A stretch of 32,000 nucleotides of DNA from an uncultured Ructibacterium sp. (lineage in GTDB: Bacteria; Bacillota; Clostridia; Monoglobales; Monoglobaceae). The notes beneath the pieces were generated by a model. The model was not told the DNA's origin. It ran no database searches and saw only the letters and a list, made by a program, of their open reading frames with translations. Shown piece by piece: positions 18,674 through 32,000 of this stretch; positions within the stretch are counted from its first letter, which is position 1; the number at the start of each line of letters is the position of its first letter. Where the stretch lies: the NCBI GenBank assembly GCA_965146665.1, contig CBCTHE010000003.1:90545-122544 (forward strand), in the 5' to 3' direction. The position numbers and the translations under genes were made by a program.

Positions 18674-20188
18674 ATGAGTGAACAGAACCAACAAAATGGC
18701 GGACAGGCCGCTGCTGAAAAGGAACTGAATGAGGTGCTGCGGATCCGGAGGGAAAAGCTGGCGGTTCTGCAGGAGGAAGGGGAGAACCCCTTTGATATTA
18801 CGAAGTTTGCCCGTGAAAACCATGCCCGGGATATTGTGGAGCGATATGCGGATTTTGAAGGCAGACTTGTCACTGTTGCAGGCCGGCTGATGTCAAAACG
18901 TGTCATGGGAAAGATGTCTTTTGCCGATTTGCAGGACGGTACGGGCAGGATTCAGCTTTGCGTCAAGCGGGATGAAATGGGGGAAGAGCCCTATAAAAAA
19001 TACAAAAAGCTGGACATTGGCGATATTGTTGGCGTAACGGGCGAGGTATTTACGACCCAAAAGGGCGAGATCTCAATCCGCACCGCTTCGGTCAGGCTTT
19101 TGAGTAAATCTCTGCGTCCCCTGCCGGAAAAATTCCATGGCCTTACCAATCAGGACCTTCGATACCGTCAGCGGTATGTGGATTTGATTATGAATCCGGA
19201 GGTAAAGCGCACCTTTCAGATGCGGAGCAGAATTATGACTGCCATCCGAAATTATCTGGATTCACGGGGATATATGGAAGTCGAGACGCCAATTCTGAAT
19301 ACCATTGCCGGGGGCGCCGCCGCGCGTCCTTTCATTACGCACCACAATACGCTGGATATCGATATGTATCTCCGTATTGCGCCGGAGCTTTATTTAAAGC
19401 GGCTGGTCGTGGGCGGGTTTGAGAAGGTCTATGAGATGGGGCGCCTGTTCCGGAATGAGGGCATGGATGTCAAGCACAACCCGGAATTTACAACCATCGA
19501 ATTATATCAAGCCTATTCCGACTATGTGGATATGATGGACCTGACTGAGGACATGATTCGAACTGTGGCACAAGAGGTTCTGGGAACCACAACCATCACC
19601 TATCAAGGCGAGGAAATTGATCTGGGCAAGCCATGGGCACGAATTACTATGATTGAGGCAATCAAGCAGTATACAGGAGCGGATTTTCGTAACGTAAAGG
19701 ACGCGGCAGAGGCAGAGGCGCTGGCCAAATCCATTGGCGTTGAATTTGCTGAGGACGCGGCGCCCTTGTCCAAGGGTGAAATTATCAGCCTTGCATTTGA
19801 AGAAAAAGTCGAGGAACGGCTGGTACAGCCTACCTTTATTACCGAATATCCGGTTGAGATTTCTCCGCTTGCCAAGCGCTATGCCGACAATCCGGAATTT
19901 ACAGAACGGTTTGAAGTATTCATTACCCGCCGGGAATTTGGAAACGCGTTTTCCGAGCTCAACGATCCCATTGACCAAAAAGAACGCTTCTTAAAGCAGG
20001 TCGAAAAGAGAGAAAAAGGCGATGATGAGGCCAATATGATGGATGAGGACTATGTCAACGCATTGGAGTATGGGCTGCCTCCGACTGGCGGTCTGGGAAT
20101 CGGTATTGACCGGCTGGTCATGCTTTTGACCGACAGTTCATCCATCCGTGATGTACTGTTGTTCCCCACAATGAAGCCGATTGACTGA
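18674..20188 (+). CDS. lysS: Lysyl-tRNA synthetase, class II
   Basis: 504 aa with an N-terminal OB anticodon-binding domain ([23 protein letters not shown]). Class II motifs are present: [18 protein letters not shown]-like FEVFI and [14 protein letters not shown]. Confidence 0.97.
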
Positions 20189-20350
20189 GTAAGTTCGTAT
20201 AAGTTCATACACAGAGGCTTTTAGAGGGTTATGGAGAGTGCTTACCACAGAACTTACCACAATTTACGAAAACCGCACCACAAAAAATGCGGAGCGATTA
20301 TGCAAATCTCCGCAAGCCCCCGCAGCTCTCTGTAAATCTATTTAGCATCG

Positions 20351-20381
20351 AAGCCCACCGAGAAATCGGTGGGCTTTTTTT
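20351..20381 (+). terminator. Strong intrinsic terminator downstream of lysS
   Basis: aagcccaccg / agaaat / cggtgggctt followed by a T7 run. It lies about 160 nt after the lysS stop. Confidence 0.85.
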
Positions 20382-20384
20382 GTT

Positions 20385-20427
20385 GCGCCTGTCGCATTCC
20401 AGAGCGGAATGTGGCAGGCGCTTTTTC
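20385..20427 (+). terminator. Second, tandem hairpin with a T-run
   Basis: gcgcctgtcgcattcc / agagc / ggaatgtggcaggcgc (two mismatches) followed by tttttc. It comes immediately after the first terminator. Confidence 0.55.
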
Positions 20428-20504
20428 TTTTCACAGGCTGCATTTGACCCCAAAAAAATTATTTTGAAAAAGTGGTTTAATTTTTCGAGCTTTTTTTGCT
20501 GTTG

Positions 20505-20870
20505 TGGGGTGTGAGGCAAAACACCTCACGAGTTCCTTGAAAACTGAATACACATTCATCAGGTCGTTCCTGAGCGGAGGGGAAACCCTCAGCCGTATGA
20601 AAGTGCGCCATGATCCTCCTGCCCATAAGGGTAAATGCGGAAAGCAAGGAGGGAGAGCGAAGCCGAACTGTTCTGAAATATCCGGTTGCTACGGATAAGG
20701 CGATGAAACGCATCAGGGTTAATGATACTTCCCTATGGGGCTGGCGGAGAACCCGGCAGAGGTGAGATTCCTATGGACTCGGTTAGCAGCCGAGCGCCTG
20801 ATGACTTCCTATTGTGCTTGGGGTGTCGTGGACAAATAAAGCACATTACATAGCCGCCGAGGGCGGCTAT
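20505..20870 (+). ncRNA. Candidate structured non-coding RNA or long structured leader upstream of parA (family not identified)
   Basis: About 370 nt with no SD-preceded ORF and many local hairpins, with one possible long-range pairing.
- gtgagg/cctcac at 20511-20529.
- gaggg-GAAA-ccctc at 20577-20590.
- cctcctgc/gcaaggagg at 20615-20652.
- gcg-atgaaa-cgc at 20700-20711.
- ctcgg/ccgag at 20778-20794.
- gccgcc-gag-ggcggc at 20853-20867.
- Possible long-range pairing ccggtt (20682) with aacccgg (20750).
The strand is assumed from the parA orientation. Confidence 0.3.
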
Positions 20871-22727: not shown

Positions 22728-22870
22728 AACAATCGCATCATTCACGCCGAGCAACAAAGGCTGATATGATAAAAGATTACCCTGCAAATTCCGCCACAAG
22801 TTTTGTCTGTTTTTCGGGAAGTAAGGCAGGAGAGGTCTTTACAGCCGAAAAAACGAAGGGCTATGTTTTC

Positions 22871-22896
22871 CCGCAGTTTCAGACTGCGGTTTTTTT
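22871..22896 (+). terminator. Terminator-like hairpin 32 nt upstream of the surface-protein start
   Basis: ccgcag / tttcaga / ctgcgg followed by a T7 run. It could end the parAB transcript or act as an attenuator for the downstream gene. Confidence 0.55.
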
Positions 22897-22927
22897 GCGC
22901 CCAAAATCTAAAATGGAGGATTCGACA

Positions 22928-25900
22928 ATGAATCACTGTATCAAAACCAATGGAAAGCGAATGACAGCCCTGCTTCTGGTGCTTGTCCTCGCTCTCTCTA
23001 TGTTTTCCACTACGGCGTTTGCTGCTCAGGAGGACAACTACCACGACCCCGCCGAGAATTGGCTCAATGCCGCAAACCGAACCAATGAGCTTGATGCCAA
23101 CGCAACGGTCACGCACGAGACTTTCAACTGCGCTGTGTGCGGCGGCGCTCGCTCCTTTATGGCATGGCGCACACCGGAATATACCCGCAACGGTGAGACC
23201 GCTATGACCCGCAATGTTCGTTATTCGGACGGTACGCTGGTAGGCGGTGAGGGTACAGGTGCGGTAATGGACGGTCTGCCCGGCTCCAACGCATTTTATA
23301 CGGGCTATCATTGGACTAAAGCCTGCTGTGAGACCTGCGGCACCATGAACAGCAATATGGGCATCGGGGATTACAGCTTTGGCAAAAATGTGTACTGGCT
23401 GTACGACTGCGCCCCTGAGTTCACCGAGAAACTGCTCGAACAGGTAAAGTATGAGTATGCCGACAGCACCTATCATACGAAAAGCACAAAGGGCGGCTCT
23501 TACTGCTGCTTCTGCTTTGGCACCAATCACACCAGTTCCTCTGTGCTGGAGCGCCACAATATGCAGACGGAGATCATTCCCCAAATCAGCAATGACCGTT
23601 TTGCCATCGTGAAGCATTGCACAGACTGCGAGTACACCAGCACCACCTATGTGGCGGCGAAGTCCGTCATTGCCGACTACTACGGCGTAGTGGACGGTCA
23701 GCCCCATACGGTCACGATTTCCGATCTGTCCGAGGCTGGAGTATCCACGCAGATTCGCTACGGCAATTCTGCTGAGTCATGCACTCTGACGAGCGCTCCC
23801 AACTATACCGAAAAGGGACAGTATGCCGTTTACTATGAAATCACCTACTCCTATTCCGGCATGACGATGACCGAAAACGGTGTTGCCAATGTCTGGCTGC
23901 ACGATGAGAAGGAAGATACCGACTGTCCCTGTGGCTGCGGCGACCCAGACTGCGACTGCAAGAATCCCGACTGCAACGGAAGCTGCCATAACAAGGGTTG
24001 CGGGGACAATCACAACTTCATCGTCCTTGAGACAGTCAATCCCACCTGCAAGACCCTCGGCTACACTCGCTATCTCTGCGTGGAGTGCGGGAAGATCGAG
24101 AAGCGTGACTATATGAACGCTATCGGTCATGCGTGGCAGAGCATCGTGGTGCGTGACGCTACCTGCGAGGCAGGCGGCAAGGTGCTGAATATCTGCAAAA
24201 ACTGCGGCGAGTGCGAGGAGACAACTACTCCGAAGGGCGAGCATAAGTACGGCGTTTCTGTTGTAAACGCCACCTGCGTCAGCCCCGGCTATACGGTCAA
24301 GGAGTGCGAGGTCTGCGGCGACCGCCACATCACCGACATTCAGAACGCCAAGCCCCACAGATATGAAGCCATTACCACCCCCGCAAACTGCGAGAGCGGC
24401 GGCTATACCCTGCATCTGTGCAAGGGCTGCGGCAGCTCCTTTATCACCGATTACACTGACCCTTTGGGGCATAGCTTCGATAAGGGTACTACTGTGACTT
24501 CGCCCTCCTGCACCGGAGAGGGTGTGACGGAATATCGCTGTGAGCGCTGCGGCTATCACTATGTAGATGGGAATGCGGCAAGCGGGCATAAGGCAGGCGA
24601 GGAAGCCACCTGCACCAATTCCCAGATTTGCACCGTCTGCGGCGCTGTTATCAAGCAGGCGCTTGGACACAGCTATAAGACGGAGATCACCGCTCCCACC
24701 TGCACTGAGATGGGCTTTACCACCTACACATGTGAGCGCTGCGGCGAAAGCTACAAGAGCGACTATGTGAAGGCGACCGGTCACAAGTCGAGCGATTGGA
24801 TCATCGACAAGGAGCCTACCACCAGCAGCGAGGGCAGCAAGCACAAGGAATGCTTGAGCTGTGGCGAGAAGCTGGAAACAGCAACCATTGAAAAGCTCTA
24901 CCTGACTGCCACGACCGACAGTAAGGGTGAGGCTGTTGTGGGCGGCTATCTTGTCATCGTGACTGATACCGACACGGAAAACCCTGTTTCCAATGCCCAT
25001 CTGGTCTTGAACAAGAATGGAAGTCTGTCTATCCGTCTCCCCAATGGGCGTATCATCGACTATGCCGACCAGACAACTGTGACTGTGAAGCTGGTGAAGG
25101 ACAAGTCTCCAGTTTCTGAGCTTCCGATTGCCGTTACCGATAAGAACGACAATTATGCCGCAGGAAAGACCGATAAGGCTGGGCAGATCACTATTCCCAG
25201 CGGCTCCGGTATCACCAACGATGATGGCAAAGCGACCGTAGGCGGCAAAGACGCTGATGGCGACCGCTACACCATTACCGTCAGGGTGATTGATTTTGAA
25301 ACCGGCAGACCCATTGAGGGTGCTATTGTTACCATTGGCAAGACCGGCAATATCACAGTGAAGCTGCCTGATGGCACCGACATGGACGAGAACAACCGCA
25401 TTACCGTCATTGTCACCGATAACCGCAAGAATCCCCTTGAGGACGAGAATGTAACCGTAAAGGGCGATATGGGTCAGACCGCAACCGGCAAGACCGATGA
25501 GGACGGTGAGCTTACCGTTCCTGATGTGATCGAGGAAGAGCGTCATGGCGTTTATATCTATGGCTATGAGGACGGAACCTTCGGCGCAGAGCGCAACATG
25601 ACCCGCAGCGAGGCGGCAGCTATCTTCGCCCGTCTGCTTGCCGAGAAGAAGGGCGACAGCATTCCTGAAAAGGGTTCTGTTACCACCAAATACACCGATA
25701 TTCCCTCTAACGCATGGTATGCGGGGTATGTGAAGTACCTTACGAACTACGGCGTGGTCTATGGTCGTGGCGACAAAATCTTTGCTCCCAACGACGAGAT
25801 CACTCGTGCAGAGTTCACCGTCATGGCTGTGCGTTTCTTTGAGGTCTACGGCGAGGGCGCTGAGGAGATCGTGGAAAAGTACGAGGGCTTCTCCGATGTC

Positions 25901-26194
25901 AGCTCCGGCTATTGGGCGGCTGAATATATCAAAGACGCTGCCATTCATGGCTGGGTTTACGGCTACGGCGACGGAACCTTCCACGCCGACGCCAACATCA
26001 CTCGTGCCGAGGTGGTCTCCCTGATGAACCGTATGCTCGGCAGAACGCCGGACAAAGCATATATCGAGAAGAATATCCGCTATCTCAACACCTTCTATGA
26101 CCTGTCCAGCAAGCATTGGGCATATCTTGCCGTAATGGAAGCGGCAAATGCTCATACCGCAACTCTCGGTGATACCGAGACATGGAGCAAGTAA
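22928..26194 (+). CDS. Large secreted cell-surface protein: Cys-rich N-terminal region, 8 tandem CxxC modules, Ig/CarboxypepD_reg-like repeats, and 3 C-terminal SLH domains
   Basis: Start ATG 22928 is 8 nt after ggagg (the track start 22766 is an extension). Signal peptide: MNHCIKTNGKRMTALLLVLVLALSMFSTTAFA/AQ. Repeated modules have the pattern C-x3-G-[YF]-T-x3-C-x2-C-G-...-G-H. The SLH-type repeats are YGYEDGTFGAERNMTRSEAAAIFARLL, YGRGDKIFAPNDEITRAEFTVMAVRFF and YGYGDGTFHADANITRAEVVSLMNRML. Confidence 0.9.
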   Translation: MNHCIKTNGKRMTALLLVLVLALSMFSTTAFAAQEDNYHDPAENWLNAANRTNELDANATVTHETFNCAVCGGARSFMAWRTPEYTRNGETAMTRNVRYSDGTLVGGEGTGAVMDGLPGSNAFYTGYHWTKACCETCGTMNSNMGIGDYSFGKNVYWLYDCAPEFTEKLLEQVKYEYADSTYHTKSTKGGSYCCFCFGTNHTSSSVLERHNMQTEIIPQISNDRFAIVKHCTDCEYTSTTYVAAKSVIADYYGVVDGQPHTVTISDLSEAGVSTQIRYGNSAESCTLTSAPNYTEKGQYAVYYEITYSYSGMTMTENGVANVWLHDEKEDTDCPCGCGDPDCDCKNPDCNGSCHNKGCGDNHNFIVLETVNPTCKTLGYTRYLCVECGKIEKRDYMNAIGHAWQSIVVRDATCEAGGKVLNICKNCGECEETTTPKGEHKYGVSVVNATCVSPGYTVKECEVCGDRHITDIQNAKPHRYEAITTPANCESGGYTLHLCKGCGSSFITDYTDPLGHSFDKGTTVTSPSCTGEGVTEYRCERCGYHYVDGNAASGHKAGEEATCTNSQICTVCGAVIKQALGHSYKTEITAPTCTEMGFTTYTCERCGESYKSDYVKATGHKSSDWIIDKEPTTSSEGSKHKECLSCGEKLETATIEKLYLTATTDSKGEAVVGGYLVIVTDTDTENPVSNAHLVLNKNGSLSIRLPNGRIIDYADQTTVTVKLVKDKSPVSELPIAVTDKNDNYAAGKTDKAGQITIPSGSGITNDDGKATVGGKDADGDRYTITVRVIDFETGRPIEGAIVTIGKTGNITVKLPDGTDMDENNRITVIVTDNRKNPLEDENVTVKGDMGQTATGKTDEDGELTVPDVIEEERHGVYIYGYEDGTFGAERNMTRSEAAAIFARLLAEKKGDSIPEKGSVTTKYTDIPSNAWYAGYVKYLTNYGVVYGRGDKIFAPNDEITRAEFTVMAVRFFEVYGEGAEEIVEKYEGFSDVSSGYWAAEYIKDAAIHGWVYGYGDGTFHADANITRAEVVSLMNRMLGRTPDKAYIEKNIRYLNTFYDLSSKHWAYLAVMEAANAHTATLGDTETWSK

Positions 26195-28382: not shown

Positions 28383-29324
28383 ATGGAGCTTCATATCAGA
28401 CCTATGTGCTTTGAGGAGCGCAAATATGCCTATGAGCAAAGCTCGCAGCTCATGAGCCAGACTGGAAGTATTGGGCGGCTTAGAGGCGACTTTGGCTCCG
28501 GTGGCATGGAGTTCTGGACAACTTGGGAGGATCACCAGAAAGACTTGAAAACCGATGCTTTTAAGGCAGAGCTGGATGATGTCATCAATGCTCTGCGCTC
28601 CGAGGAATACGGTTTGCTCAAAGATAGGCGCAGCATGGTGAGCTTTGCACGAAGGGAGCCGGACAGCGCCTTTAAGGGAAACTACACCACCGAGTATGGT
28701 TTTCGTGTGGATACCAAAGAACATGCTTTCCTGATCCGGTGCAATCCCCAGCAGGGCGACTATAACTTCTACTGCTTCTGCTATGTCTCCAAATGGCTGG
28801 ATCAGAACATCGAGGAAGCCCGCAAGGATATTCGTTTCATTGACAGCGGCTACAATGAGCTTTTCAGGCTTCCCGATGGAGAGCAGATTACAATTACTCT
28901 GTCTACCGATGAGAAGCTGGATAGAACCTGCCGCTATATTGACGAAACTCATCTTGAGGTAGGTCGCAGTCTCTATCACATCTGCGAGTTTGCAGAGCGC
29001 ATGGAGCGCAACGGGAACACTTATGCACCGAAAGAGCCGCCGCTCCCGCCGAAGTGTTTTACACTGTTGCCCTCAAGCGGGGACATCATCGAAATCACTC
29101 GCTTTGAAAAGGGATATAGACCTATCCGAAAAAGAGAAGCCTTTGAAACACAGGGTGGAAGAGAGCTGTTTGTGGATACCGCAAACAAGAGAATGGGTGT
29201 GACAAAGGCTCAGGAAGCCGCTATGCTGGCTGGCTCCCTGTTCGGGTGGGACGCCCCCGCCGCAAAGCCGAAAAACTATGATGAGAACGGAAAGGCAATC
29301 AAGCCAAAAGATCGAGAGCGATAA
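28383..29324 (+). CDS. Hypothetical protein (313 aa), conserved conjugative-element ORF
   Basis: The ATG directly abuts the previous TAA, with SD gggagg. Segments such as QTGSIGRLRGDFGSGG, AELDDVINALRSE, YGFRVDT..HAFLIRCNPQQGDYNFYCFCY and YHICEFAERMERNG are familiar from Clostridia ICEs (from memory), with function unknown. Confidence 0.78.
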   Translation: MELHIRPMCFEERKYAYEQSSQLMSQTGSIGRLRGDFGSGGMEFWTTWEDHQKDLKTDAFKAELDDVINALRSEEYGLLKDRRSMVSFARREPDSAFKGNYTTEYGFRVDTKEHAFLIRCNPQQGDYNFYCFCYVSKWLDQNIEEARKDIRFIDSGYNELFRLPDGEQITITLSTDEKLDRTCRYIDETHLEVGRSLYHICEFAERMERNGNTYAPKEPPLPPKCFTLLPSSGDIIEITRFEKGYRPIRKREAFETQGGRELFVDTANKRMGVTKAQEAAMLAGSLFGWDAPAAKPKNYDENGKAIKPKDRER

Positions 29325-29339
29325 AGGAGGTGTAGACCG

Positions 29340-32000
29340 ATGGCTCGAAAGTATGACCTGATTTCTGAACTATACAACCGTACTGCAAAAAGGGTGGTGG
29401 GCAACCCCGAAAGCTGGCAGCAGTTCTTGGATTCAGCTTGCAGGAACTTCAAGCTCCGTTTTGACGAGCAGCTTTTGATCTTTGCCCAGCGCCCCGATGC
29501 AACCGCCGTTTTGGAAATTGAGCGGTGGAACGAGGGTTTTGGCAGATGGGTCAACAGGGGCGCAAGAGGTATCGCCGTTTTTGAGGACAGCGACCGCAGC
29601 CACCAGCGGCTCAAACACTATTTCGATGTTTCGGATACCCACCCCAGCCGGTATTCTCGTCCTGTTCCTATCTGGCAGATGGAGCCGGAGTATGAAGCTG
29701 AGGTAATCGAAACCTTGGAGAGTACCTTCGGTACACTTTCCGAAAAGGACACACTGGAAGCCGCCATTCTGAGCGCCGCCAAGAACGCCGTTGAGGACAA
29801 TATTCCCGATTATGAGCGTGACTTGCTCTATACAGTAAGGGACAGCTTTCTGGAGGAGCTGGACGAGGATATGGTTACGGCGATGTATCGGAAGGTAGTC
29901 CGAAACAGCGTCGCCTATATGCTGATGAGCCGTCTGGGACTGGACACCGGCGACTATTTTGAGCGCAGTGACTTTGAAGATATTATCAACTTCAATACCG
30001 GCGAGACCATGAACGCTTTAGGCTTTGCCACCAGCGACATTGCGGAAATGGCACTGACGGAGATAGCCAGAACGATCAATTCCCTGAATCGGAAAAATCG
30101 CATAATTGCGGGACGGGCGCAGGGCGGTTACAATGATGGCGTAGAAATAACGAAAGAAAGGGGTTCTGAGCATGAGCGAAGTCAGTTACACGATGCAGGG
30201 GGATTACCAGCTCCCGAACCTGAAGCTGCCGGAGCAGCCGGAAGTAACTTTGGGCAAGTACGCAGGGCTGAGGAAGAAATACCTGAAGGAGCATCATCGA
30301 GTGTTGTACTACAATCTGCTGACGAGCTGCAAGCTGGAGGAACATCTGGCGGAGGTAGAGCAGAGGGCGACCTCGATGGAGGAAATGCTGGTGCGTCAGA
30401 TGGCGGACAAGCAGGGCGTGACCGAGCGTCTGAAAGCGGAGGACATGATGGCTTGGGTTCGGAAGATGAACAATCTGAGGAACTCAGCGCAGGAGATCGT
30501 GTTGGCGGAAGTGGTTTACGCCTAAGCTGGCATGAGCGGTCTGATGAGGACAAAACAATTCCGTTCCTTGGTTCCGATGATGATGTAAACGCCATTCTGC
30601 TGGCAACGCCGCACCTGAAAAAGTCTAAGGCGCTCATTCGTGACTTCCTTGAAGGCAAGCCTGACGAGCATACTCGGACAGATTTTATCAAGGAATGTTT
30701 TAATAACGACTACACTGAGGTTATTCTCGATGATGGTCGCAGAATGGGCTATAAGACCTATGAAAATGTGCTGCACCTGTGGGAAGGCAGCTATCTGTCT
30801 CGCACAAAACAGGCATATTATGATTGGGGTGTCATTGCCGCCCACTTCGAGGGCTTACGGCTTTTGGGAGAGCTTCAGGACAACATGAAACCCCTTCCGT
30901 CTATGGAGGGACAGCAGGAAACACTTGCTTTGGCAGAGGAGAAATCCTCTGCCTTTTCCTTTTCACAGGAGATCATCGACGCTGTTCTCACTCGTGGGAG
31001 CAATGTAGAAGAGGGCAAGTTCCGCATCTATGAGCAGTTTCAAAAGAGCTTGTCCGCAAAAGAAAACATTGACTTTCTCAAAAAGGAGTACGGCTGGGGC
31101 GGCATTTATCCCGTTATCACCGGCACAGGTATTGATGAGCAGCACGATGGCAAGGGCATCACCCTGCAAAGAGGATTCGGGGAACACGATCCCCGCATTA
31201 CCCTGAAATGGGATAAGGTTGAAAAGCGGATAGCAGAGCTGATCCGCTTAGACAGATACCTGAATCCCAAAGAGGTGGAGCTTTACCCCGCATGGCTTGC
31301 AAAGCAGGAGGAACGCCGGCAGGAGCAGAGAGAGCGGCAGGCGGTTCGAGAGGTACTGAACACAGCACCGCAGGCGCAGGAGCCAGTGCCGGAGCCGGAA
31401 CCGGAACCAGCATCACACTATGAGTACCATCTGGGGGATAAGGTTTACTTTGGAGCAGACGAGTTTGAAATCCTATCGCTTTCCGGTGACAGGGTTTTGC
31501 TCTATGATACGAAATTCCCCCTGTTCCAAAGGGAAGAGACAAGGGAGGACTTTGAGCGTAAGGTGCAGGAGAATCCGCTCAACGACCATTTGAAGGTGCG
31601 GGACAGCGAGATTGCTACCGTACCGTCTGACACTCCAAAAAAGGAGATTCCAGAAGCCGATGACCGTTTCCATGTAGTAGAGCTGGACAGGGGCTATCAG
31701 ACTGCCTATGGCATTTGGGACGATGAGCATAACTCTGAATATGTGGACGAGGAAGGCGTCAGCGAGGAGTTCCTGAGCGAATGGGAAGCCAATGCTTATG
31801 CAGAAAAGCTCAACACTGCTTGGAGGGAGCAGCCCGTTCAGGAAAAGCCCTCTCAGATTCAGGAATACAGCCGGATAAAGGAAGAGAATCCCGCCAGTGT
31901 TTTGCTGTACCAGAATGGGGATTCCTTTGTGGCTTATCACGAGGACGCAAAAGTGCTTGGGGACTTTCTGGGTATTGCTCCGTCAACACAGGAGTTGGCA
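29340..32000 (+). CDS. N-terminal 887 codons of a very large multidomain (polyvalent-type) conjugative-element protein, open at the window end
   Basis: ATG 29340 is 8 nt after SD aaggagg. I checked every codon by coordinate (codon starts divisible by 3) and found no stop through 32000. It is absent from the ORF track because no stop lies in the window. Layout: a globular N-terminal domain, a low-complexity linker of about 120 aa, further globular segments, a PEPEPEP linker and a MutS-domain-I-like stretch at the end. Confidence 0.85.
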   Translation, partial: MARKYDLISELYNRTAKRVVGNPESWQQFLDSACRNFKLRFDEQLLIFAQRPDATAVLEIERWNEGFGRWVNRGARGIAVFEDSDRSHQRLKHYFDVSDTHPSRYSRPVPIWQMEPEYEAEVIETLESTFGTLSEKDTLEAAILSAAKNAVEDNIPDYERDLLYTVRDSFLEELDEDMVTAMYRKVVRNSVAYMLMSRLGLDTGDYFERSDFEDIINFNTGETMNALGFATSDIAEMALTEIARTINSLNRKNRIIAGRAQGGYNDGVEITKERGSEHERSQLHDAGGLPAPEPEAAGAAGSNFGQVRRAEEEIPEGASSSVVLQSADELQAGGTSGGGRAEGDLDGGNAGASDGGQAGRDRASESGGHDGLGSEDEQSEELSAGDRVGGSGLRLSWHERSDEDKTIPFLGSDDDVNAILLATPHLKKSKALIRDFLEGKPDEHTRTDFIKECFNNDYTEVILDDGRRMGYKTYENVLHLWEGSYLSRTKQAYYDWGVIAAHFEGLRLLGELQDNMKPLPSMEGQQETLALAEEKSSAFSFSQEIIDAVLTRGSNVEEGKFRIYEQFQKSLSAKENIDFLKKEYGWGGIYPVITGTGIDEQHDGKGITLQRGFGEHDPRITLKWDKVEKRIAELIRLDRYLNPKEVELYPAWLAKQEERRQEQRERQAVREVLNTAPQAQEPVPEPEPEPASHYEYHLGDKVYFGADEFEILSLSGDRVLLYDTKFPLFQREETREDFERKVQENPLNDHLKVRDSEIATVPSDTPKKEIPEADDRFHVVELDRGYQTAYGIWDDEHNSEYVDEEGVSEEFLSEWEANAYAEKLNTAWREQPVQEKPSQIQEYSRIKEENPASVLLYQNGDSFVAYHEDAKVLGDFLGIAPSTQELA
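30172..30525 (+). CDS. tnpV: TnpV-family protein ORF, nested in the +1 frame inside the large ORF
   Basis: 117 aa with an SD-like gaaagggg 8 nt upstream. The sequence MSEVSYTMQGDYQLPNLKLPEQPEVTLGKYAGLRKKYLKEHHRVLYYNLLTSCKLEEHLAEVEQRA...QGVTERLKAEDMMAWVRKMNNLRNSAQEIVLAEVVYA matches the TnpV pattern as I recall it (GDYxLPNL, LGKY..R..YL.EH, HLAE, GVTE.LKA.D.M.WV..MNN.R). Whether it is expressed is unknown. Confidence 0.6.
   Translation: MSEVSYTMQGDYQLPNLKLPEQPEVTLGKYAGLRKKYLKEHHRVLYYNLLTSCKLEEHLAEVEQRATSMEEMLVRQMADKQGVTERLKAEDMMAWVRKMNNLRNSAQEIVLAEVVYA

Follow-up and report, generated by a model that had tools for sequence, protein, structure and literature searches.

A tnpV gene probably nested out of frame within the linker of a giant polyvalent gene in conjugative elements of Clostridia

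Same-strand nested genes are known from several systems. In Bacillus subtilis, comS lies on the same strand as srfAB, out of frame and wholly within this very large multidomain gene, and has its own internal start. Rz1 in Rz of the lambdoid spanins, and B in A and E in D of phiX174, are complete +1-frame nested genes with their own initiation signals, and both products of each pair are functional. To our knowledge, bacteria offer few well-supported same-strand nested genes that exceed 100 codons, and most accepted cases are found in phages or encode tiny peptides. GndA and other same-strand nested small open reading frames (ORFs) of Escherichia coli are described as out of frame and missed by annotation (PMC11230408). 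Here, we analyzed a stretch of 32,000 nucleotides (the window) from an uncultured Ructibacterium sp. of the Clostridia (GenBank assembly GCA_965146665.1, contig CBCTHE010000003.1, positions 90,545 to 122,544 of the forward strand), in which a complete ORF of the TnpV family (tnpV) lies inside a large uninterrupted ORF (the host gene). Our best explanation, with a probability of about 0.85 from comparative analysis, is that the two form an ancient same-strand nested gene pair, with tnpV coded out of frame within a translated linker of the host protein. The features at the center of this explanation are as follows.

29340..32000, + strand: 5' part of the host gene, 886 codons with no stop, leaving the window; AAGGAGG at 29324-29330.
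30123..30551, + strand: predicted disordered interdomain linker, host amino acids (aa) 262-404, which is the host-frame reading of tnpV and its flanks.
30156-30163, + strand: tnpV Shine-Dalgarno (SD) sequence, GAAAGGGG in the window and GAAAGGAG in most homologues, 8 nucleotides (nt) before the ATG.
30172-30525, + strand: tnpV, 117 codons and TAA, in the +1 frame relative to the host ORF.

An earlier reading of the window, made from its letters without database searches (the sequence-only reading), had described a frame without a stop from ATG 29340 to position 32000 and, within it, a 117-codon +1 ORF with an SD-like element of its own. Both descriptions were confirmed. From its similarities, the host gene is predicted to encode a giant polyvalent protein of conjugative elements, with an ArdC-like N-terminal domain, the linker, and LPD, MutS_I-like, methylase and SNF2-helicase modules.

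The product of 30172-30525 matched the Pfam family TnpV (PF14198) over profile positions 2-111 of 111 (E = 6.8e-44, 148.8 bits; the gathering cut-off of the family is 27 bits), and this full-length match bears out the identity that had been proposed from the residue pattern. At 117 aa, the product fits a class of small mobile-element proteins of Firmicutes (~115-125 aa), and the family is large, with 6558 clusters at 50% identity with E ≤ 1e-3. The AlphaFold2 model of TnpV has a predicted local distance difference test score (pLDDT) of 92.5 and consists of a beta-hairpin followed by helices. An NCBIfam search with TnpV, the host N-terminal domain and the neighboring genes gave no hit. A role of TnpV in excision has been postulated from a claimed resemblance to lambda Xis (PMC3158075). 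Fold searches with the TnpV model returned nothing significant (best E = 2.6 in PDB and 0.83 in BFVD), and a Xis-like protein was absent among the listed matches in these two databases, which is a fold-level test only. The predicted model thus lends the Xis-like role no fold support.

We investigated whether the nesting is conserved by a scan for relatives, which used one genome per species and a host-protein alignment. Relatives were found in 328 stretches, and 80 loci were kept. They come from different Clostridia genomes of Lachnospiraceae, Oscillospiraceae, Acutalibacteraceae, Ruminococcus and related groups, and the window makes 81. The TnpV ORF is exactly 354 nt long and in the +1 frame in the window and in 80/80 loci, where its product is 61-92% identical to the TnpV of the window. 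An ATG is found at the aligned tnpV start in 80/80 loci, with a one-codon shift in L074. Across tnpV, the host frame is open in all 80 related loci as well as in the window, so that no host-frame stop was found in 81/81 loci. After removal of near-duplicates, 61 sequences were retained for the statistics on variability and stops; their overlaps fall into 18 clusters below 80% nucleotide identity, and the lowest identity is 62%.

More distant ArdC-like/SNF2 genes also hold an ORF right after the ArdC-like domain, in the +1 frame and with its own SD and ATG. These ORFs have 114-144 codons, counted from the first ATG. The following encode nested TnpV proteins.

Plasmid helicase gene of C. perfringens: Pfam TnpV, E = 4.7e-24.
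SNF2 gene of C. botulinum pCDC5900: Pfam TnpV, E = 6e-26.
SNF2 gene of L. monocytogenes pLIS32: Pfam TnpV, E = 2.8e-6.
Plasmid DEAD/DEAH helicase gene of S. suis: Pfam TnpV, E = 1.6e-14.
SNF2 gene of E. faecalis pAT22-a: E = 3.2e-7 with a custom hidden Markov model (HMM).

The tnpV copies of Cohnella, Subdoligranulum and Monoglobus are nested too, in the same frame. The sequence-only reading had surmised that dual coding might be conserved in related proteins of ICEs (integrative and conjugative elements); the 80/80 loci together with the distant homologues agree with this. Its two other explanations fared differently. The ArdC-like domains of elements that share the nesting are just ~25-30% identical, which refutes a recent fusion of three genes. 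An assembly indel is refuted because the continuous frame recurs in 81 independent assemblies.

Variability by codon position showed which frame is constrained. In the flanks, host codon position 3 varies most (0.47-0.62). Within 30165-30521, it is host position 1, that is, tnpV position 3, that varies most (0.35-0.45), and host position 3 falls to 0.17-0.21. The frame-specific check suggested by the sequence-only reading therefore gave a variability that follows the tnpV frame. Substitution classes were then estimated from 29 independent pairs, with rates relative to doubly silent changes.

Silent in TnpV, alters the linker (SN/SS): 1.06.
Alters TnpV, silent in the linker (NS/SS): 0.22.
Alters both (NN/SS): 0.27.
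Host flanks, N/S: 0.17.

Rates of 0.22-0.27 against 1.06 indicate that TnpV evolves like an ordinary protein, and that the linker amino acids are effectively unconstrained. By this measure, TnpV is under ordinary purifying selection (omega ~0.25), and the amino acids of the linker change by neutral drift.

These rates bear on, and contradict, the view that the host polyprotein alone is functional, with the +1 ORF being either a relic or something that the composition of a linker rich in Gly, Ala, Glu and Ser produces by itself. Given the linker protein, the +1 frame stays open over 117 codons in ~26-28% of synonymous recodings. Openness is thus unsurprising, and the case for tnpV rests instead on the HMM match, the selection pattern and the signals. 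A by-product would not be expected to give a full-length Pfam match and a confident AlphaFold2 model. The periodicity and the omega of ~0.25 follow the tnpV frame, with neutral amino acids in the linker, and the length of exactly 354 nt, the SD and the ATG are conserved. The composition of the linker is itself predicted from the TnpV codons. We see only a very slight chance that the ORF is a by-product.

The openness of the host frame is a different matter. A host-frame stop arises where a tnpV codon ends in T before AA, AG or GA, and each gene has ~37 such junctions. T was found at 0/2232 of these dangerous junctions, compared with 16.7% at other third positions. With the TnpV protein fixed and its codons chosen among synonyms, the host frame would be open with a median probability of 2.9e-5 under the codon usage of the flanks or 5.7e-4 under that of TnpV itself, and the window has 1.8e-5 to 4.5e-4; the frame was observed open in 61/61. 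In AT-rich distant plasmids the same probability is 1.6e-8 to 2.4e-14. Stand-alone tnpV genes do have stops in the host-equivalent frame: 4 in a C. coli plasmid, 3 in S. gallolyticus, 14 in a Salmonella IncHI2 plasmid and 4 in Vescimonas. The C. coli copy adjoins a serine recombinase, and the S. gallolyticus copy is tet(O/W/32/O)-linked. From these statistics, the host frame is kept open by selection within the overlap, with no constraint at the amino-acid level.

Gene annotation gives a different picture, since every annotated or gene-called record that we inspected shows one gene of the pair only. TnpV is called, and the big gene is truncated or unlisted, in bacterium D16-76 (L001), an Acutalibacteraceae metagenome-assembled genome (L005/L006), Monoglobus (L092) and Cohnella (L099). 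In these records ~830 nt of ArdC-like domain are unannotated, and the frame is open for 1200 to >2400 codons. The big gene is called, and TnpV omitted, in S. suis, C. perfringens, C. botulinum, Listeria and E. faecalis. As a result of such one-gene annotation, domain surveys and pangenome counts of these elements are biased.

Records of the former kind at NCBI and ENA list TnpV, place the start of the big gene downstream and contain no annotation for the ArdC-like part. They could be taken to mean that the ArdC-like gene, tnpV and the helicase gene are separate, that only tnpV is real in the overlap, and that the continuity is accidental or an assembly or indel artefact. However, the host frame in those very records is open for 2332 to >2400 codons. 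It is open in 81/81 assemblies as well as in the distant plasmids, although the probability of this by chance is ~1e-4 or less for each sequence, and the stops of the stand-alone genes show that tnpV can carry stops in that frame. Nor is a downstream start conserved: the starts chosen by annotators differ between records, and the codon in question is CTG in 13/61. We consider the chance that the genes are separate to be negligible.

Across the homologues, no conserved host-frame start or SD was found after tnpV. The nearest candidates in the window are TTG 30453 and ATG 30744, in line with the remark of the sequence-only reading that no in-frame start lies near 30530. In L005, the 30453-equivalent codon is where ENA and NCBI place the start of the big gene. 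This codon is NTG only because it overlaps an invariant Trp of TnpV, and the GGAGG upstream of it is not conserved. We rejected TTG 30453 as an internal host start on account of the CTG in 13/61 homologues and the unconserved SD, and because the overlap upstream of 30453 alone has a ~4e-3 chance of being open.

In the host frame, the bases of tnpV read GGLPAPEPEAAGAAGS...GGQAGRD, rich in Gly, Ala, Glu, Ser and Asp, so that ~115 residues of the linker result from reading tnpV in a frame shifted by -1 relative to its own. By translation, a tryptic peptide of the linker is AEGDLDGGNAGASDGGQAGR. AlphaFold2 gave host aa 262-404 a pLDDT of 24-37 and no secondary structure, and the region sits between two folded segments. 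This upholds the description of the host frame as a low-complexity linker between real domains. The linker is gap-free in the alignment across homologues. Synonymous recoding of TnpV, on the condition that no host stops occur, already yields a sequence rich in Gly, Ala, Glu, Ser, Asp and Arg. Compared with this null, real linkers have 12.2% instead of 15.5% hydrophobic residues and are depleted in Lys and Cys. We rejected selection for linker composition, since the shift is weak and the low-complexity look is mostly automatic.

The remaining host features in the window are the domains on either side of the linker.

29340..30122, + strand: N-terminal host domain, aa 1-261, ArdC-like and single-stranded DNA (ssDNA)-binding by similarity.
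30552..30880, + strand: first folded host domain after the linker, aa ~405-513, highly conserved (LRLDYYDR...FNNDYTE...).
31857..31979, + strand: start of a MutS domain I-like module, aa 840-880, Pfam MutS_I E = 4e-4.

The 886-aa host translation matches 1580 proteins, and the best 120 of them (54-90% identity) all cross the linker as a single polypeptide. Intact homologues have ~2330 to >2400 codons; the frame runs open over 2400+ codons in L001 and over 2332 in L005. Longer homologues (1955-2324+ aa) carry LPD11, MutS_I, an Eco57I-type methylase, WH_1, DUF8437, SNF2/ResIII and Helicase_dom. Among the host domains named by Pfam in homologues, the 886 codons of the window hold MutS_I alone, with 20.9 bits against a cut-off of 20.6; a homologue profile matches MutS structures with E = 2e-9. 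A tblastn search with the N-terminal 277 aa found coding sequences (CDSs) annotated as 'ArdC-like ssDNA-binding domain-containing protein' or 'SNF2-related protein' at 24-30% identity, on plasmids of Listeria, Enterococcus, Clostridium, Staphylococcus and others. Pfam and NCBIfam gave no hit for the N-terminal domain, and the homologue profile matched only MutS structures in PDB. A megablast search of 29340-32000 against plasmids found no match. In an AlphaFold2 run with 29 homologues, the helical segment of aa 111-261 has a pLDDT of 75-93. After the linker, aa ~410-510 are predicted as mixed alpha/beta, with a pLDDT of 58-79 across the domain at 30552..30880, and Pfam gave no hit for the window sequence of this domain.

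In eight loci (L011, L050, L081, L016, L029, L009, L025 and L076) the host ORF ends early, 550-2700 nt past tnpV, with the overlap intact. Their polyvalent genes may have been cut short or interrupted; in L050 and L081, for instance, the cause could be insertions close to the SLSAKEN site. In L. monocytogenes pLM1-2bUG1 (L096), the polyvalent gene is reduced to a 500-aa 'ArdC-like' CDS, and an IS6 transposase gene lies ~570 nt downstream. Truncation of this type may explain the many Listeria plasmids annotated with an ArdC-like protein only.

The expression signals of tnpV are also conserved. The sequence GAAAGGAG is near-invariant at a fixed spacing, and of all conserved runs in the 2.2-kb alignment of the 61 sequences it is the longest. 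The near-invariant 'ERS/ERG' in the host protein is imposed by this SD, and the host 'LRL' is due to the tnpV stop. Another conserved block lies 40-75 nt upstream of tnpV.

30096..30134, + strand: conserved nucleotide element in the host ORF, AATCGCATAATTG (30096-30108) followed by TACAAT (30129-30134).

A spacer of 17 nt separates its TTGCGG hexamer (TTG at 30106-30108) from TACAAT. Conservation is 92-100% at host synonymous sites 30098, 30101, 30104 and 30107 and 100% at 30134; outside the overlap, only 6.7% of host third positions reach 90% conservation. The TTGCGG/TACAAT geometry recurs in Monoglobus L092. The element is possibly an internal promoter for tnpV, putative as this is on conservation and spacing. 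In the window, the block is also a near-palindrome (CGCA-TAAT-TGCG), and it could be an operator rather than a promoter.

The same signals bear on a further explanation, in which a programmed +1 frameshift leads into tnpV; the resulting ArdC-like-TnpV fusion would end at the stop of tnpV, and the balance between short and long products would be set in this way. Frameshift control of product ratios is common in mobile elements, and a metagenomic protein of 396 aa (P0296) is an in-frame ArdC-like-TnpV fusion. However, in every locus a stop closes the tnpV frame 0-156 nt upstream of the ATG; the distance is 21 nt in the window, and in L041 the two codons touch (TAA-ATG). Moreover, a frameshift would make the near-invariant SD and ATG superfluous. 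Given this closure and the conservation of the SD and ATG, a frameshift fusion is unlikely, and we allow it only a slight chance. No conserved RNA structure was predicted from -80 to +60 around the tnpV start, which argues against sequestration of the SD and against a frameshift stimulator; slippery sites were not searched systematically. P0296, whose ArdC-like domain is 50% identical to that of the window, is the sole hint of a fusion product. It changes frame far upstream, near 'ATSDI', as for a sequencing or mutational frameshift, and it is probably one or the other.

If tnpV and the host gene are a nested pair, ribosomes from ATG 29340 would pass through tnpV in the other frame and produce an acidic, Gly/Ser-rich disordered tether. 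This tether would join the ArdC-like domain to the rest of the polyvalent protein; its sequence would be free to drift, with stops and frameshifts forbidden. The linker would have to stay open because ~2000 downstream codons have no conserved start of their own. A host stop in the overlap would cut these codons off, and this would explain the avoidance of stops. Other ribosomes would initiate at the internal SD and ATG (30156-30163 and 30172) and produce a free, folded TnpV of 117 aa. The element at 30096-30134 may give tnpV a separate transcript.

Several points weigh against this picture or against parts of it. The loci share ancestry, so counts such as 61/61 are not independent trials. The substitution classes come from single-site classification on pairs ≤25% divergent, which yields a few spurious 'stop' classes. 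The ArdC-like label is given by similarity only, as it derives from tblastn matches to annotated genes, with no HMM hit. For the putative promoter, the -35 hexamer matches the consensus at 3/6 positions (5/6 for the -10), a promoter consensus scan made no call, and the element is not evident in the distant AT-rich or Bacilli copies of tnpV. Finally, the support for both products is comparative throughout, and from it we infer their synthesis in vivo.

The origin of the overlap can be considered separately. The sequence-only reading had suggested that tnpV is overprinted on a disordered linker. The out-of-frame position in a translated disordered linker was upheld, and the implied direction, namely that tnpV is the younger frame, is tentative. 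Under that suggestion both frames are translated, and tnpV arose de novo in an existing disordered linker and later escaped as a stand-alone gene. The nesting is found in every ArdC-like/SNF2 lineage examined, the divergence of TnpV roughly tracks that of the host, and the +1 frame stays open easily given a linker of such composition. A neighbor-joining tree places two stand-alone TnpVs with the nested clade of Clostridia ICEs, inside the nested diversity. However, the tree has 117 columns, no support values and only these two stand-alone sequences, and AT-rich lineages may simply evolve faster. In overprinted pairs, relative age is commonly judged by constraint: a constrained, well-folded frame is regarded as the older of the two, and a neutral one of low complexity as the younger. 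Here tnpV, a member of a very large family, is constrained and folded, and the linker is neutral and of low complexity. On that reasoning, the host would have come to read through an existing gene. A younger tnpV is possible, though doubtful.

We also considered whether TnpV as a family was born, or became fixed, nested in the ArdC-like/SNF2 linker, in which case the tnpV genes of Tn4451-type elements and tet(O) cassettes would be escapees with their own promoter and SD. This proposal is rather unlikely and is put forward tentatively. If true, it would mean that a widespread Pfam family traces to an overprinting event in a bacterial mobile element. A possible vehicle would be the serine-recombinase integrative and mobilizable elements (IMEs) with tnpV that insert, in S. 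suis, into the same snf2 gene (PMC9815147).

In S. suis, an 11-bp inverted repeat, 5'-TTTTGCGGACA-3', is reported to flank TnpV-carrying serine-integrase IMEs and cis-mobilizable elements (CIMEs) inside the ICE snf2 gene (PMC9815147). An exact copy of this repeat occurs in the window at 31051-31061 (+ strand TGTCCGCAAAA), in the conserved host motif SLSAKEN, ~530 nt downstream of tnpV. The number of exact 11-bp matches expected by chance is ~0.015 (64 kb, both strands, divided by 4^11). Among the 61 homologues, only the window has the exact repeat, and most others differ from it at 1-3 positions. From this match, 31051-31061 may be an attB site for such IMEs. The idea that the S. suis IMEs insert into the nested tnpV itself was rejected, as the repeat lies ~530 nt downstream instead. 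The S. suis literature asks why snf2 is a hot spot of IME insertion, and the nested tnpV may bear on that question.

Two antisense frames in the window were considered as well.

30182-30691, - strand: antisense ORF over tnpV, 169 aa, without a Pfam match.
23777-26155, - strand: antisense ORF of 792 codons inside a 1142-aa SLH/Big_1 surface-protein gene (22766-26194, + strand), without a Pfam match.

The first had been listed as open by the sequence-only reading. It does exist, but the two better antisense frames over tnpV are open in just 44% and 21% of homologues. We rejected it as a functional ORF and take it as a by-product, since it is not conserved and has no Pfam match. The second is probably a compositional by-product.

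Chromosomal genes fill the window up to ~20.2 kb, including ftsE/ftsX-like genes, an M23 peptidase, an S41 protease, greA and lysS. Past ~20.2 kb there are parA, parB, the SLH surface protein and small ORFs, and this stretch is consistent with the start of an integrated conjugative element. The switch from chromosomal to element genes falls between the end of lysS at 20188 and the start of parA at 20814, so that one end of the integrated element probably falls at ~20200-20800. The 32,000-nt window contains no tRNA gene.

Compared with known systems, the pair is a supported, unusually large and deeply conserved case of a known arrangement, the same-strand nested gene. Iyer et al. (2017, PMC5512222) have described polyvalent proteins of conjugative elements and phages, whose architecture matches that of the host gene. 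The text of that paper contains neither 'TnpV' nor 'overlapping', and among the titles and passages found in the literature on TnpV, alone or together with overlapping genes or with helicases and ICEs, none describes the nesting. The gene nested in the linker would be a layer added to the polyvalent architecture. It is backed by frame-specific selection in 81 loci and extends to plasmids and ICEs of Listeria, Enterococcus, Streptococcus and Clostridium that spread resistance genes. Ever since Tn4451, TnpV has remained an orphan protein; nested copies are present in several tractable hosts.

The stand-alone TnpV proteins of Tn4451/Tn4453-type transposons and tet(O)-linked cassettes belong to the same family and are 36-42% identical to the TnpV of the window. 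They adjoin large serine recombinases or resistance genes and have 3-14 stops in the host-equivalent frame, whereas the window copy is nested and obliges that frame to remain open. Nested peptides of the GndA type are shorter than 50 aa and have little phylogenetic depth, whereas tnpV encodes a 117-aa protein that is predicted to fold and has strong comparative support. Rz1/Rz and the phiX174 pairs belong to compact phage genomes, and both of their frames are constrained. Here, by contrast, the genes lie in a conjugative element, the outer frame behaves as a neutral spacer, and the inner gene is constrained. The closest parallel in layout, comS, has 46 codons and is confined to a narrow group, whereas tnpV has 117 codons and belongs to a large Pfam family found across elements of Clostridia and Bacilli. 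Furthermore, comS overlaps a catalytic module of a nonribosomal peptide synthetase, whereas tnpV overlaps a disordered linker of unconstrained sequence. This would be an unusual division of labor, in which the inner gene bears the constraint at the protein level, and the giant outer gene uses the same bases as a free-drifting tether.

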